Virus record (IMG/VR): IMGVR_UViG_3300012007_000013
Location: 20,435-84,434 of that record
Source of the DNA: a virus
Taxonomy: Duplodnaviria; Caudoviricetes
Reading direction: 5' to 3' (one strand)
Length of the DNA stretch: 64,000 bases
Below, piece after piece: positions 20,119 to 56,208 of this stretch (its first letter is position 1; the number at the start of each line of letters is the position of its first letter). The notes beneath the pieces are model-generated. The model made no database searches, had not been told where the DNA came from, and worked only from the letters and a program-made list of their open reading frames with translations. Both the position numbers and the translations under genes were made by a program.

Positions 20119-20472
20119 CTAGTTCGTAATTCTCTTTTTTACAGGCGGTCGCTTCTCAAGAGTTGCGACCGCTTCCACTTCTGTACGGAGGAATCCGACT
20201 TTGTGGTTGTTTATCGTGTGCGTTTTTACACCGTGTTTTGCGAGCACTTTCTGCATTGCCTCACGCGAGCCTATGTTAAGGATACGCATTGCATCGTCGT
20301 AAGTCACGAAAGAGTCTTCCCTAAAGTAGCCTTTGTTTTCGGCGTTGACGCGACCGAGCATATAACCTATCTGCTCGTCGTTGCATTCGCCGTTCTCCAT
20401 TCTGTGGAGGATGTCCTTTAAATATCGTATCGCCTCTTTCATAAGTGGCGATTTTACTTTTCCGCCTTCCAT
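20119..20472 (-). CDS. putative HTH DNA-binding protein
   Basis: C-terminal VTYDDAMRILNIGSREAMQKVL resembles an excisionase/MerR-type HTH; basic tail. Confidence 0.45.
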   Translation of the reverse strand: MEGGKVKSPLMKEAIRYLKDILHRMENGECNDEQIGYMLGRVNAENKGYFREDSFVTYDDAMRILNIGSREAMQKVLAKHGVKTHTINNHKVGFLRTEVEAVATLEKRPPVKKRITN

Positions 20473-22445: not shown

Positions 22446-23088
22446 TGCTATCTCGGATTGGGTAGCGAGTTCTTTGACATATTGACAAGTTTTCGTAGTC
22501 TTCGAGGTACATCCATTTGAACCCACCACCTTGGGAGTACAATCCTCGACAACACTGGCTGATGCTTCCTTGGCAAACACCAGTGTGTTTGGATGCTTCA
22601 ACGATACTTACGTATTTCGCTACAAAAGCATTCTCAATCGTCAACTGGATTACTTTCCTTCGTTGGTACGCAGTTTGATGGATAGTCGTTGCCATACGTT
22701 CGTTGTGTCGGCCATAGTTGCAGTTATAAGATTGAGTACACCACTCAAGATTTTCTGAATTATTATTCTCGGGATTTTCGTCCTTGTGATTTATATAAGG
22801 CAGGTTATCTGGGTTTTGTATAAAAGAATTTGCAACAAGTCGATGAATCAAAAATTGTTTACGATGTTTTTCTCCGTCTGATAAGACGACAGATAGGTAT
22901 ACACTCGACTTCCTCGGTTTGATTAGTTGTGGTTTTCTGAAACAGACTCTATCCCCACAAAGATAGGGTGCAGAGAAAGACACTATTCTTCCAAGGTTAG
23001 AAACGGCATATCGGCCTTCGTAACCGACTACATCTCGCCAATCCTCTCCCTCCAATTTAATGGAATTGATGAACTCTTCGTTTGTCAT
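22405..23088 (-). CDS. NUMOD4-HNH-NUMOD1 homing endonuclease
   Basis: EDWRDVVGYEGRYAVSNLGR, IHRLVA..F, INHKDEN..NN...NLEW, FVAKYVSIVEAS; ATG at 23088. Confidence 0.88.
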   Translation of the reverse strand: MTNEEFINSIKLEGEDWRDVVGYEGRYAVSNLGRIVSFSAPYLCGDRVCFRKPQLIKPRKSSVYLSVVLSDGEKHRKQFLIHRLVANSFIQNPDNLPYINHKDENPENNNSENLEWCTQSYNCNYGRHNERMATTIHQTAYQRRKVIQLTIENAFVAKYVSIVEASKHTGVCQGSISQCCRGLYSQGGGFKWMYLEDYENLSICQRTRYPIRDSIIRSCVTSASSNP

Positions 23089-30365: not shown

Positions 30366-31121
30366 TTAGAAGTTGTCACTTTCTACCTCAAATGTATCTC
30401 CGCTGTGAGCCACTGACACTTTCACGAGAGGCAGTGCGTCTTGAACAGACTTCAATGCAAAGTCCTCGTTTATGTTTTGGTGACTGAGATGTATTAGGAT
30501 TATCTGCTTTGTGCTGATTGACGAGTTGCGTCTGCAGAAGTCGATGCAGTCTTCAAGTCCCATGTGGTTCTCGGGGTGGCTCCGGCTCTGTTCCGCGTTG
30601 ACAAAGTTGTCGATGAGCGTGTCGTCATCGTGGTTGCATTCGACCATTATGCAGTCGATGTCCTTGAAGTTGTACTGACACCCCATAGCGTCCGTGACGA
30701 ACACAATGCGTTCCTTTGTCGGCGTTACTATCAGAAAGCCGTAATTTGGCACGTTGTGGGCGACTTCGAACGGCTGGACGACAAATCCTCCGACGAACGT
30801 CTTTTGAGCCATAGGAAGCGGCTTTATGCCCTTAATCGAGCCTTCTTTTAGCAGTTCCTCGTAGACTTTCTCGCCGCAGAACACTGGGATACCTCGTCTG
30901 ATAAACTCTTTTGCGGTGGACTTGTTTAAATGGTCTGTGTGCCTTGGTTTTATTCACCAGTGCGAGGCGATACAGCCCCGCACCGATGCAAAGTCCTCCA
31001 TATTTAATGTATAATCCATCATTTTCATTCCGAGTTCCACAATCAAACATTGATTGTTAGAGCGTAGCAAAAATCCGTTTCCTGTGCTACCAGTGTTTAC
31101 TACCTTGATACTTGTTCCCAT
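30366..31121 (-). CDS. MBL-fold metallo-hydrolase (putative exonuclease) with in-frame TGA in the HxHxDH motif
   Basis: ATG 31121 MGTSIKVVNTGSTGNG...; SH[W*IKP]RHTDH; downstream H.V, FVTD, ECNHD, HM and LIHLS motifs intact. Confidence 0.75.
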
Positions 31122-31681
31122 ATAAATCCTCCCGCTTGTTTTCTGATGTGTCCTGGGCAGAACTCTTCTTTACCTGCCACCTGTTTTATATTTCTTGCAC
31201 ATACACCGGTTGCCCTACTCGCTTCCGCTGCATTTTCATACATTGCGATAAAGTTGCCTTGCAAGTCCTTTTGAATGATTTTTTGCGGTCTTACATACTT
31301 ATTGTAATAGTTCATTCCTTTTACGTCCCTCGAATCAATATCTTTTTTATAGTGTTCTTCTGCGGATACAAGTTCAAGATTTTCAACGCAATTATTTTGC
31401 TTATTATGGTCTTTATGGTGAATGTGCCATTTGTGTCCTCTTGGTATTTCTCCAACAAAATGTTCATAGACTAATCTGTGTATCCTTGTGTATTTAACCT
31501 TCCCCATCCATTGAAGAATCACGGAAAAATATCCGCCTTTTGCATTTACATTTGGCAAGACACGCCATTCTGTGATTCTTTGAGTGGGGTTCCTTCTTTT
31601 TTTACACGATAGAAGAGTGCCTTTATCGCCTATCCGATAGACACCTTCAAACCCTTTAATATCTACAAATTTTTCTTCCAT
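31100..31681 (-). CDS. NUMOD4-HNH-NUMOD1 homing endonuclease
   Basis: FVDIKGFEGVYRIGDKG, IHRLVYEHF, IHHKDHNKQNNCVENLE, YENAAEASR. Confidence 0.88.
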   Translation of the reverse strand: MEEKFVDIKGFEGVYRIGDKGTLLSCKKRRNPTQRITEWRVLPNVNAKGGYFSVILQWMGKVKYTRIHRLVYEHFVGEIPRGHKWHIHHKDHNKQNNCVENLELVSAEEHYKKDIDSRDVKGMNYYNKYVRPQKIIQKDLQGNFIAMYENAAEASRATGVCARNIKQVAGKEEFCPGHIRKQAGGFIWEQVSR

Positions 31682-31682
31682 A

Positions 31683-31802
31683 TTATTCGTTTTTATAGTC
31701 CATCATTTTGCACCCAAGTTCGAGCACAAGAGCCTGACCGCCGCTTTCGAGAATGTAGCCGTTCGCAGATGAAGATGAAGAGCAAACGTGAATAGTGGTC
31801 AT
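31683..31802 (-). pseudogene. orphaned original N-terminus of the MBL hydrolase (39 aa)
   Basis: MTTIHVCSSSSSANGYILESGGQALVLELGCKMMDY aligns with residues 1-37 of 30366..31121. Confidence 0.75.
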
Positions 31803-31822: not shown

Positions 31823-32502
31823 TTAATACGTCTCGTGCATATAGTCGCCTGCTTTTATTTCAGAATTTTCATCTTCTGAGCACTCTATAAATTCAGGAAC
31901 TTGTGCTTCAAAAGTATCGTATAGAATCCAAATATTCTTTTCTTGGTCAAAACCTTGCAGGATTTCTATTAATTCTTTTACTTTCATAACTTATAATTTT
32001 ATTCCGTAGTATTTTATTTTGAATTTAATAATATTGCTATATATATCAAACTTGTTACGTAGGCGCTCATCATTGACAAAAACGCAAAAATTGCAGTTAT
32101 GTCAAGTATACAAATATCCCTTACTTGTACTCCGAAAAGAGAAAAAGATGGTAATAAAATCGCTTGCCCTGCTTGTGGGAACGCAAATATAAATAATAAA
32201 AGAAGTACAAAAAAAGCAATAAACGAAACAAAGAAACCGATTAAACAATCTTCTATTTCATCTCGAAACTTTAATTCTTCATTCCCCATAATACTCATTT
32301 ATTTTTGATTAAACAGTTTTTCAAGTTCTTCCTGCAACAAGTCGAACGCTTCTTGGTCGCAGATGTGCTCGTATGCCTCCCTCCATTCCATCGCCCTGTC
32401 GTGGAAATAGGCACCGTCGGCGAAATAAACGCTTTGCGCCATAGCACGGATTATCTCCGTGTCATTCGCAGTTACCTTTTGATGTGCTTCTACCTCTTTC
32501 AT
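31823..32502 (-). CDS. three small proteins (31823-31987; membrane protein 32014-32298; 32299-32502)
   Basis: Co-oriented short ORFs; the middle one is hydrophobic and AT-rich. Confidence 0.5.
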
Positions 32503-32594
32503 TGTCTTTTTGACTTAGTGCCCGTGGGTTTGTCTCCTTGCCCACGGGCTGTTGGCTGTCCAGAGCCTCCTTTGTATAGTTGGCGAACCTCGGG

Positions 32595-33381: not shown

Positions 33382-33464
33382 TGCCACAGGCCGGACTCGA
33401 ACCGACATCGGACGCGGGGCGTCATTTTACCAACTGACCAATAGGGTCATTAAACTACGGTGGC
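33382..33464 (-). ncRNA. atypical tRNA-like element
   Basis: Acceptor stem GCCACCG/CTGTGGC (6/7), T-arm GTCGG-TTCGAGT-CCGGC, D-arm with a 15-nt hairpin insert, anticodon arm GACGC-CCC-GCGTC; no encoded CCA. Confidence 0.6.
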
Positions 33465-43206: not shown

Positions 43207-44262
43207 TTAATTGTTTTCAAATAATGGTGTAAACCTCCAAATAAAACCTTTGTAGGTTTTTCTCTTTCCAAGACAGCAAGAACTTATATTATTTGCGCGA
43301 AAACCGTTTCTTTGACATTCTGTTTCACTTGGCCATATTTTAATTAATTCAAAATCTAACGAGTATTGGTAAACTTTCTTCTTCTTCTCTGAGTTCCTGT
43401 TTAATACTTTTTCTTTTATATTATTTAATTCGTTTTCATGAAGGGCTTTGAAACTCCAGATATGCCCTTTATGCTTTGTTTGCTTCCCAATGCAGCAATT
43501 AGAAATACACGCTTGCGAGAATCCAAATTTTTCAGGTTCTGCTTCGTTGTTCCATATATTAACAAGTTCCCCATCAAGTGTGTATTGATACACTTTCCTA
43601 ACCAAATGTTTGTTTAATTTAGGAATGGCCATTTTTGAAAATTCAAGCAACTCTTGTTTGCTCATTTCATAGAAACTCCAAATAAAACCTTTATGCGTGA
43701 GTCTTTCTTTTTTACAACACGCATGAACTTTGCATACTAAAAATCCTTTTTCTTTAAACTCTTTTGAATACTCCCATTTCTTTATAAACTCACCATCGAG
43801 TGAATATTGAAAGACAGGGATTGTCTTTGTCTTTGAAGTCCTTTGCGCTGATGTCCCGTACCTATTGTTTTCTGTGCTTGTAACTACTTCGAGGTTTTCT
43901 GCACAGTTATTATGTGGGTTCTCGTCTTTGTGATTTATAACAAACATTTTGTCTCCGTTACCTTTGCCCATGTATTTAAACTCAGGGAGTATTCCATTGA
44001 ATGCTTTATAAACCAATCTGTGAACAAAAATTTTCTTTGTTTTGTTGTCTTTGCACAATGTAACCCTATGGTGTTCTTTTCTAATGTCATGCCGTAAAAG
44101 CGATGGTCTGTTTGTCGAATGATAATTCAAACTTTTTACCCTACCTTTGTTGCTCACTTGATACAGCCCTTCGTACCCCACAACGTCTTTCCAGACCTCA
44201 CCGTCAAGGTCGACGATAGGTTCGTGCACTTTTTTAGACTTTCGTCCTTCCGTTTGTTTCAT
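43207..44262 (-). CDS. NUMOD4-HNH endonuclease with three NUMOD1-like repeats
   Basis: EVWKDVVGYEGLYQVSNKGR, VHRLVY, INHKDENPHNN..ENLE; three V.QY.LDG...K.W repeats. Confidence 0.88.
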   Translation of the reverse strand: MKQTEGRKSKKVHEPIVDLDGEVWKDVVGYEGLYQVSNKGRVKSLNYHSTNRPSLLRHDIRKEHHRVTLCKDNKTKKIFVHRLVYKAFNGILPEFKYMGKGNGDKMFVINHKDENPHNNCAENLEVVTSTENNRYGTSAQRTSKTKTIPVFQYSLDGEFIKKWEYSKEFKEKGFLVCKVHACCKKERLTHKGFIWSFYEMSKQELLEFSKMAIPKLNKHLVRKVYQYTLDGELVNIWNNEAEPEKFGFSQACISNCCIGKQTKHKGHIWSFKALHENELNNIKEKVLNRNSEKKKKVYQYSLDFELIKIWPSETECQRNGFRANNISSCCLGKRKTYKGFIWRFTPLFENN

Positions 44263-55638: not shown

Positions 55639-56160
55639 TCATAATGGTCTATATGACCACATATATCCCTGTGCGGTTTTTCTTTCTCCTCTGCAACAAG
55701 ATGCTACATTACCGAAATGAAATCCGTTTCTGTTGCATTCCATAACACTTTGCCATATTTTAACCAACACTTTGTTCTTTGTATATTGGTATACTTTTTT
55801 AGATGAACTATGATTCACATTTTCACTATGAGTGACGAGTTCTAAGTTCCAAACGGCATTATTTGATTTGTTTTTGTCTATGTGGTTTATCTCCATTCGC
55901 TCGGAACCCACACCACTCTTATTGAAAGCGGGTATATCCGAAACAAAAGTCATATAAACGAGTCTGTGAGCAAAAATAAACCACCTCTTCTGCTTTTTTG
56001 TTAGTACATACATGTGATAACCATGTGGGTCGATATATGGCTTTAGGATTTTACTTTTTCCTGTTAAATGATAGTTTAACGATTTAATCCTACCATAATT
56101 ACTCACTTGATACATCCCTTCGTATCCTTTAACATCCTTCCATATTTCTTGTGTTTCCAT
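55639..56160 (-). CDS. NUMOD4-HNH homing endonuclease
   Basis: EIWKDVKGYEGMYQVSNYGR, AHRLVY, INHIDKNKSNN..WNLE; ATG at 56160. Confidence 0.88.
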   Translation of the reverse strand: METQEIWKDVKGYEGMYQVSNYGRIKSLNYHLTGKSKILKPYIDPHGYHMYVLTKKQKRWFIFAHRLVYMTFVSDIPAFNKSGVGSERMEINHIDKNKSNNAVWNLELVTHSENVNHSSSKKVYQYTKNKVLVKIWQSVMECNRNGFHFGNVASCCRGERKTAQGYMWSYRPL

Positions 56161-56208
56161 TGTATAAAAATATAAATCTGCACTACGAGTTGTCAGGTTC
56201 AAATTAGC

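Follow-up and report, generated by a model that had tools for sequence, protein, structure and literature searches.

The stretch of tailed-phage DNA analysed here ("the window": 64,000 nucleotides (nt), positions 20,435 to 84,434 of IMG/VR record IMGVR_UViG_3300012007_000013) carries a gene for a metallo-beta-lactamase (MBL)-fold hydrolase whose HxHxDH motif is interrupted by 15 nt that include an in-frame stop codon. Comparison with related phages shows these 15 nt to be the terminal coding gap of a mobile homing-endonuclease cassette. Further, the balance leans modestly towards a gene that still works, the ribosome being predicted to make a short hop from a UGG codon, on which it stalls before UGA, to an AGG codon downstream, giving the motif SHWHTDH. 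We also incline, though not strongly, to place this locus in a natural family of hairpin-driven short hops borne on homing-endonuclease cassettes, and to see in it an independent counterpart of T4 gene 60 in miniature. The window belongs to an 84-kb virus record that is about 99% complete; the phage group comes from rumen and gut metagenomes, and the window phage is of the rumen type.

Like all genes of this stretch, the hydrolase gene lies on the minus strand. An open reading frame (ORF) that starts at 31121 encodes a typical MBL-fold N-terminus and reaches ...GCIASHW after 55 codons; a TGA follows at 30956-30954, and the same frame resumes with IKPR-HTDHLNK... and is open down to 30366. Read on the minus strand from 30965 to 30939, the interrupted motif is TCG CAC TGG TGA ATA AAA CCA AGG CAC ACA GAC CAT, which translates as S H W * I K P R H T D H. 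In close relatives (70-84% identity) the protein has 246 amino acids and an uninterrupted, insert-free SH-x-HxDH. The 15-nt (5-codon) insertion in the catalytic motif is therefore real, as a preliminary description of this DNA had claimed, and the retention of the other MBL motifs downstream was also correctly described there. The features that bear on the proposed hop are these:

30960..30983, minus strand: hairpin GUGCGGGGC-UGUAUC-GCCUCGCAC, 9 base pairs (bp) with a 6-nt loop, ending at the codon for the first motif histidine (His1) and abutting the take-off codon.
30957..30959, minus strand: proposed take-off codon TGG (Trp), which follows the hairpin; the stop is next.
30945..30956, minus strand: coding gap, TGA plus ATA AAA CCA, absent from intact homologues; its length varies and its flanks are kept.
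30942..30944, minus strand: proposed landing codon AGG; the AGG-CAY junction is found in alleles a, m and n, and TGG in k and l.
30366..30941, minus strand: rest of the hydrolase gene, from H-T-D-H onward, 191 codons plus stop; open, with all other MBL motifs kept.

The hairpin is a hallmark of the insert-bearing loci. In 23 of 23 such loci, the 24 nt up to and including the His1 codon have a folding free energy (dG) of -14.7 to -17.1 kcal/mol (-16.4 kcal/mol for the 9-bp hairpin of the window), against only -1.2 to -6.1 kcal/mol in the intact alleles (10 of 10, including a gapless sister cassette described below), from which the 9-bp hairpin is absent. When 15 distinct alleles are aligned, 99.3% of the cells are paired and both sides have changed in five of the nine pairs; none of 500 shuffles was as good, and slid controls were 27-54% paired. 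Inside the hairpin, Cys, Ser and His are invariant. The Ser codon nonetheless switches between UCG and AGC/AGU, and the partner codon, which specifies a variable residue, changes so that pairing persists. Therefore, selection acts on both the protein and the RNA structure. Such a dual constraint, across six diverged insert-bearing families, is hard to reconcile with a dead gene, in which translation would end at the TGA and the gap and recoded stretch would serve only as endonuclease immunity or as a repair junction. We regard that alternative as possible but doubtful. It leaves unexplained why a 9-bp hairpin with compensatory changes in six diverged families should lie against the pre-stop codon, and why the Cys, Ser and His within it should be invariant through switches of the Ser codon family.

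The preliminary description had drawn attention to a different structure, a mini-hairpin within the insert. Its TGGT/ACCA arms are indeed present (4 bp, dG -2.6 kcal/mol), but they are no more than chance would give; the mini-hairpin is gone in L046, and L047 and L049 have other gaps. We rejected it as a signal, being weak and not conserved; the conserved structure is the 9-bp hairpin upstream. Every insert-bearing stretch has a GGAGG at a distance of 31-44 nt 5' of the stop; we dropped it as a Shine-Dalgarno (SD) element because the genome shows almost no use of such elements (13% of starts, against a background of 11%). A genome-wide scan for a hairpin followed by a sense codon, a stop and a long open frame found no second case.

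The gap itself occurs in many versions. In relatives' DNA, drawn from viral, metagenome and assembly collections, the two His codons are separated by 10 distinct intact alleles, as against about 14 alleles with extra bases; these inserts measure 3-16 nt and all lie at one and the same codon. The identical 15 nt are found in 12 contigs from at least 10 samples (the window, L022, L027, L048, L050-L056 and L065). This insert is confirmed to be far beyond chance and is neither damage nor an artefact. Uniqueness to one assembly, which the preliminary description had named as a ground for refutation, did not hold, and the recurrence that it had looked for among homologues was found, with stop-bearing inserts at the same codon in 11 alleles. 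The versions are:

Allele a: TGG TGA ATA AAA CCA AGG; window and 11 other contigs.
Allele m: TGG TGA ATA AAA AGG (CCA deleted); L046.
Allele n: TGG TGA ACAAAAACCA AGG, out of frame; L060, L061.
Allele k: TGG TGA GTA TGG; L047.
Allele l: TGG TAA GCA TGG; L049.
Allele b: TGG TGA GAA TGT; L004.
Allele c: TGG TGA CGA AGG; L013.
Alleles d and e: CGA TGA AGC; L003 (d), L006 and L033 (e).
Allele f: AGG TGA GT, out of frame; L005, L029.
Allele j: CGG TGA GG, out of frame; L059.
Allele g: CGA CGA AGA TAA AGT; L039, L042.
Allele h: CGA ATA GGT, stop-free (AUA after the take-off codon); L035.
Allele i: CGA CGA, stop-free (CGA after the take-off codon); L057, L058.

A Trp or Arg codon always stands directly 3' of the hairpin in the relatives, and the stop is the very next codon in 10 of the 11 alleles that have one (nine TGA, one TAA); in allele g a TAA is placed two codons further on. 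Alleles k and l have the same codon for take-off and landing (TGG..TGG), with the stop kept through a change from TGA to TAA, features for which a dead gene offers no explanation. Within the window's allele family (a, m, n) the gap is 12, 9 or 13 nt long, TGG-TGA and AGG-CAY are retained, and the 13-nt form is in frame solely with landing at AGG. Take-off and landing codons have at least two of three bases in common in seven of eight allele families, the match being perfect in k and l and two of three in a, m, n, b, c, f, j and g. The gap sequences are rich in A/U and have no NGG triplet ahead of the landing codon. Both gene halves are otherwise fully open at every locus, including the out-of-frame alleles f, j and n, and more than 20 loci, among them those of the endonuclease-free genomes L003, L006 and L013, showed no second lesion; this too is left unexplained if the gene is dead.

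These series also bear on the idea, to which we give almost no credence, that the 15 nt are an assembly error, an RNA-level micro-intron or the scar of a lost intron. The identical insert in at least 12 independent assemblies speaks against an assembly error. Bypass or other recoding, or else an intron scar, had been the choice offered by the preliminary description, and a conserved catalytic motif is a typical site for intron or intein insertion. However, a search with Rfam over 27-36 kb found no intron families and only one match, to the tRNA-like gene described below; the boundaries coincide with those of the HNH cassette; and inserts of 3-16 nt stand against the ribozyme fold of at least about 200 nt of a self-splicing intron. 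Bypass is the better supported of the two proposals, by the covarying hairpin and the series of alleles.

How could such a gap be crossed? At the pause, peptidyl-tRNA(Trp) would sit on UGG in the P site with UGA in the A site, and the 3' arm of the hairpin would lie inside the ribosome, melted. Slow termination would allow time for the hairpin to nucleate as the mRNA exits, and its re-zipping would pull the message forward. The tRNA(Trp) would then detach and re-pair 15 nt downstream with AGG, an interaction that allows two G-C pairs. Decoding would restart at CAC and yield ...GCIASHW-HTDHLNK..., with a normal HxHxDH motif (predicted junction peptide, GCIASHWHTDHLNK). Motifs of the SHWHTDH type also occur in intact relatives, L023 and L024 both reading THWHTDH. 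All of the predicted hops span 5-16 nt, which is about the length of mRNA that would have to emerge before the 9-bp arm could re-pair. At the level of the DNA, the gap and the recoded homologous stretch would destroy the endonuclease target in the conserved sequence that encodes HxHxDH, so that the carrier would be immune while intact alleles would be cut and converted. The untranslated gap would then be what confers immunity, and selfish nucleases could invade catalytic motifs without destroying the gene.

The link to a homing endonuclease, which the preliminary description had also made, is real and closer than it supposed, since the insert is the 3' edge of the cassette. The parts of this element are as follows:

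30945..31694, minus strand: whole cassette, namely a 13-nt leader, the HNH gene, the replacement N-terminus, the hairpin-bearing homologous stretch and the gap; breakpoints are those against L023.
31683..31802, minus strand: ORF1 remnant, the first 36 codons of the resident hydrolase followed by KNE-stop (39 codons), left over from the cassette insertion.
31100..31681, minus strand: HNH homing endonuclease, 193 amino acids (Pfam HNH_3, 48.7 bits, cut-off 24.8; NUMOD4, 30.6 bits, cut-off 23.4).
30957..31121, minus strand: cassette-borne first 55 hydrolase codons, the start overlapping the HNH stop.

The intact, endonuclease-free L023 defines the boundaries. Its nucleotide homology with the window stops at 31696 (codon 36) and sets in again at 30943, where the insert has its 3' edge, so that about 750 nt stand in place of 53 nt of the resident hydrolase gene, and the 36 amino acids of the ORF1 remnant are 100% identical to the N-terminus of L023. 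The 13-nt leader, AAAAACGAATAAT-ATG, is conserved behind three different ORF1 remnants; in L048 and L050 it lies behind the tRNA-like gene. The endonuclease also matches PHROG HNH families. Ratios of non-synonymous to synonymous substitution (dN/dS) of 0.04-0.24 were found among the HNH genes of cassette copies, which are, by the measure of their codons, under purifying selection. The N-terminal codons supplied to the hydrolase consist of 36 replacement codons and then codons 37-55 (19 codons), homologous to the deleted resident segment; among cassette copies, dN/dS of all 55 is about 0.15-0.3. The intact replacement start and N-terminus are a further feature that a dead gene leaves unexplained. 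A sister cassette (L062:1663-3241, P0004 type, 12 contigs) has an N-terminal remnant, a homologous HNH gene of 243 amino acids and a different replacement N-terminus; its motif, THTHLDH, is intact, and it has neither gap nor hairpin. Thus, the design of these cassettes appears to keep the gene usable.

The 3' part of the cassette has travelled widely. Codons 37-55 with the stop (TLNMEDFASVRGCIASHW plus stop) are identical in amino acids on at least 10 very different N-terminal backgrounds (P0121-P0133) and identical in nucleotides in the window, L022 and L027. Some of the backgrounds that have this stretch lack the HNH gene, and one is a chimera of duplicated N-termini, as expected from HNH deletion between repeats. 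To the right of the insert, L022 stays identical to the window for about 95 nt and L027 for about 9 nt, and the downstream (C-terminal) synonymous divergence (dS) between the window and L022 is 0.66. These alignments show apparent gene conversion centred on the motif, the 3' part of the cassette having been copied into many diverged alleles, with or without the HNH gene. If the gene is dead, it is this endonuclease-driven conversion that would have spread the insert, and the intact-looking flanks would reflect recent, repeated conversion into functional genes, a course of events that we think conceivable and rather doubtful. It is favoured by the signs of a very recent sweep through many backgrounds (the stretch nucleotide-identical, the flanks at dS 0.4-1.2) and by recombination breakpoints at the insert.

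Immediately 3' of the motif (window 30880-30938, minus strand), the stretch DHLNKSTAKEFIRRG, with core TCCACCGCAAAAGAGTT, is near-invariant in nucleotides across relatives, and this holds even where two alleles are elsewhere saturated at synonymous sites. The endonuclease may recognise this stretch as part of its site, or else repeated conversion may have homogenised it. A human faecal phage fragment (GenBank MT838995.1:2341-3590) has a 40%-identical HNH gene directly upstream of a 29%-identical hydrolase homologue; the pairing of endonuclease and hydrolase therefore extends to human-gut phages.

Several points weigh against a hydrolase that is still made by hopping. The downstream half of the gene has dN/dS of 0.03-0.1, like intact pairs, but these values are no test of function, because recombination at the insert attaches the cassette to fresh functional C-termini. 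Two arguments of the preliminary description are affected: the values are low and not relaxed, the check that it had proposed, yet they are invalid for the purpose, and downstream conservation, which it had taken to indicate continued selection, is confounded by recombination exactly at the insert. Part of the N-terminal codon signal may likewise predate the sweep of the gap. The landing codons are often imperfect: the window pair is UGG/AGG, in which the first base of AGG does not match tRNA(Trp), and for d and e (CGA-TGA-AGC) there is no usable match at all. In gene 60-type cassettes, by contrast, take-off and landing pairs are always cognate or wobble-matched (bioRxiv 10.1101/2022.08.31.505936). 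Gap lengths are biased to multiples of three, which bypass does not require. Hairpin-bearing alleles free of any stop are common (HRRH and HRIGH, 19 protein clusters); either extra residues are tolerated in the motif, or the phage can do without the gene. Finally, the hydrolase belongs to an accessory family, so that a selfish cassette could spread while killing it. The mismatched landing codons of a, d and e, the three out-of-frame alleles and the accessory, possibly anti-defence, nature of the family all count in favour of a dead gene.

The bias to multiples of three and the full-ORF sense versions with one or two extra residues (HRRH, HRIGH) also agree with simple readthrough of the stop, by near-cognate tRNA(Trp) or by a suppressor-like tRNA of the phage, which would place 2-5 extra residues between His1 and the second motif histidine (His2). 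The tRNA-like gene of relatives, with UCA, UUA or CUA at the anticodon position, would suit this scheme. We nonetheless judge readthrough improbable: the frame is not kept in alleles f, j and n; the tRNA-like anticodon and the gap stop are mismatched in L046, L047 and L055, and the window copy has CCC; the genetic code is standard and the ARAGORN tRNA count is zero; and with five residues between two ligands of one metal site, an active enzyme is unlikely, the Pfam match being lost. Reassignment of TGA was rejected as well, as the largest ORFs are unchanged with TGA as a sense codon, a search with ARAGORN yields no tRNA, and the alleles include a TAA form and out-of-frame forms; this genome follows the standard code. 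In the public gene call for L004 (ENA ERZ14210014 contig; P0020), the TGA of the gap is read as Trp under genetic code 4; this call is an annotation artefact of the gap.

Still less probable, in our estimation, is a two-piece enzyme, in which translation would stop at the TGA and restart nearby with the hairpin as a backstop, and chains of 55 and about 190 amino acids would assemble. Alleles f and j do have a GTGA stop/start overlap in the downstream frame, and functional genes split by HNH elements are known (T4 genes 39/60 and nrdA/mobE; bioRxiv 10.1101/2022.08.31.505936). In alleles a, b, c, d, e, k, l and m, however, the downstream frame has no start before the HxDH codons, and the first in-frame GTG of the window, at 30884, is past the motif. 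The short hop remains the reading that we prefer.

The tRNA-like gene lies at window 33382-33464 on the minus strand; it scores 29.3 bits on the Rfam tRNA model and was missed by ARAGORN. Copies are present at about L006 1200-1305, L024 1183-1288, L046 156-261, L047 465-570, L048 434-539 and L055 1240-1345. It has an extra D-loop hairpin, and the pairs 32-38 and 33-37 are possible in the anticodon arm, which would reduce its loop to 3 nt. Seven of eight related phages have a stop anticodon as the triplet (UCA, UUA or CUA); the window copy has CCC, a compensating C-G for U-A, and an acceptor-stem mismatch. The product could be a suppressor, a competitor of release factor or a decoy. As a dedicated decoder of the gap it was rejected, its anticodon mismatching the gap stop in most phages.

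Other features of these genomes deserve mention. Five HNH_3 genes are present in the window phage, the four further ones at window 22723-22794, 43207-44262 and 55639-56202 and at genome C1:14321-14452; those at 43207 and 55639, the two whose surroundings we examined, each stand alone in intergenic DNA, and no coding gap adjoins them. Between genes at window ~32521-32548, minus strand, there is a strong hairpin (CCCGTGGG...CCCACGGG, dG about -14.8, with AAGGAGA in the loop region); the ATG of a small gene follows just downstream, at 32502, and the hairpin may control its translation. In an 84.6-kb relative, a TnpB/IS605 OrfB (Cas12f-like) gene (L047:4568-5998) lies about 1.4 kb downstream of the hydrolase gene.

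As for the hydrolase itself, the read-through product matches phrog_392 ("metal-dependent hydrolase") with E = 1.4e-44 over residues 3-247, spanning the join, and shares about 30% identity with phage genes that carry the annotations metal-dependent hydrolase, YycJ-like or Apyc1-like. On PF12706, intact relatives reach 46-53 bits (cut-off 27). The window's read-through product has no Pfam match, because its HxHxDH motif is interrupted; its downstream MBL motifs are invariant relative to homologues. Fold family and motif set appear to be common to the window gene and the MBL-fold phage hydrolases (phrog_392, PF12706, Apyc1-like; PMC9117128), but the window hydrolase is only about 30% identical to the Apyc1-like genes. 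This low identity, together with a score of 28.7 bits on NF041851 (the NCBIfam cyclic-nucleotide phosphodiesterase model), far under its cut-off of 400, led us to reject identification as an Apyc1 anti-Pycsar nuclease; for PF23023, precomputed flags are present on some hydrolase homologues only. A sequence search of solved structures with the hydrolase gave no match, and neither did blastn against a phage collection. The gene is of an accessory family and possibly serves anti-defence.

To our knowledge, natural examples of programmed bypassing are scarce (T4 gene 60 with its MobA relatives, Magnusiomyces mitochondria and, as a candidate, phiHau3), and the only endonuclease-linked bypass that we know of in the literature is in topoisomerase genes of T4-like phages. 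If our proposal is true, the present locus would be an independent endonuclease-linked variant, in a different gene and phage group, with a far shorter gap and a stimulator that is a 5' hairpin. The locus provides a compact set of natural alleles, in which about 14 versions of the gap go with a single covarying hairpin, and as such bears on the minimal signals for hopping and on how loosely a landing codon may be matched. It bears also on the question of how homing endonucleases, with no intron or intein to carry them, could settle in the most strongly conserved gene segments. There are consequences for annotation, as such genes are now called as two fragments or as pseudogenes, or, in the one relative noted above, under genetic code 4.

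The MobA element of T4 consists of an HNH gene, an N-terminal extension with a homologous region, and a bypass gap at the 3' end, with 55-75 nt of the target ORF deleted, according to the report on it by Manning & Atkins, which cites Bonocora et al. 2011 (bioRxiv 10.1101/2022.08.31.505936); the same text has the gap guard against self-nicking in MobA/gene 60, and the endonuclease often lost while the gap stays. The cassette described here is alike in having the HNH gene immediately upstream, in one mobile unit with clean presence/absence boundaries; in a deletion of similar size (53 nt, against about 55-75 nt); in a new N-terminus with a homologous stretch; in an untranslatable gap at the 3' end of the element, with the stop right after a sense codon; in insertion within a metal-binding motif; and in the loss of the endonuclease with the gap persisting, as well as multiple recent insertions into diverged hosts. 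There are differences, too. The target here is an MBL-fold hydrolase, whereas there it is the large subunit of topoisomerase II, and because the cassette brings a full replacement N-terminus, the hydrolase is not split into two functional ORFs, unlike gene 60. The gap is 5-16 nt (its bypass being a prediction) rather than 50 nt, and no sequence homology was detected between it and the gap of gene 60. Rather than a conserved take-off stem-loop and mini-SD within the gap, there is a covarying 9-bp hairpin 5' of the take-off codon; and the take-off codons encode Trp or Arg, with landing codons often matched at only two of three positions. Pairing of the mRNA as it exits the ribosome has been proposed as a forward driver for gene 60 as well, in a second report (bioRxiv 10.1101/2024.12.09.627546).

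A short-gap bypass in the terminase gene of Streptomyces phage phiHau3 has been observed in E. coli, with the junction peptide identified by mass spectrometry (PMC10732093). It resembles the present case in its short gap (about 10 nt) in a phage gene, a stop in the A site and the implication of local RNA structure. It differs in that a rare UUA codon is the trigger, as a regulatory device, and in the gene concerned; a homing-endonuclease cassette is not reported there. Finally, in the E. coli "stop-hops" reportedly described by Weiss et al. in 1987, peptidyl-tRNA is said to cross a stop to a similar codon over 6-9 nt. Alleles k and l (TGG-stop-NNN-TGG) have the same form, a sense codon hopping over an adjacent stop to a similar codon. 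Those laboratory events, however, were of low efficiency, in artificial constructs and with no dedicated stimulator, whereas here a conserved hairpin and a mobile element accompany the gap.

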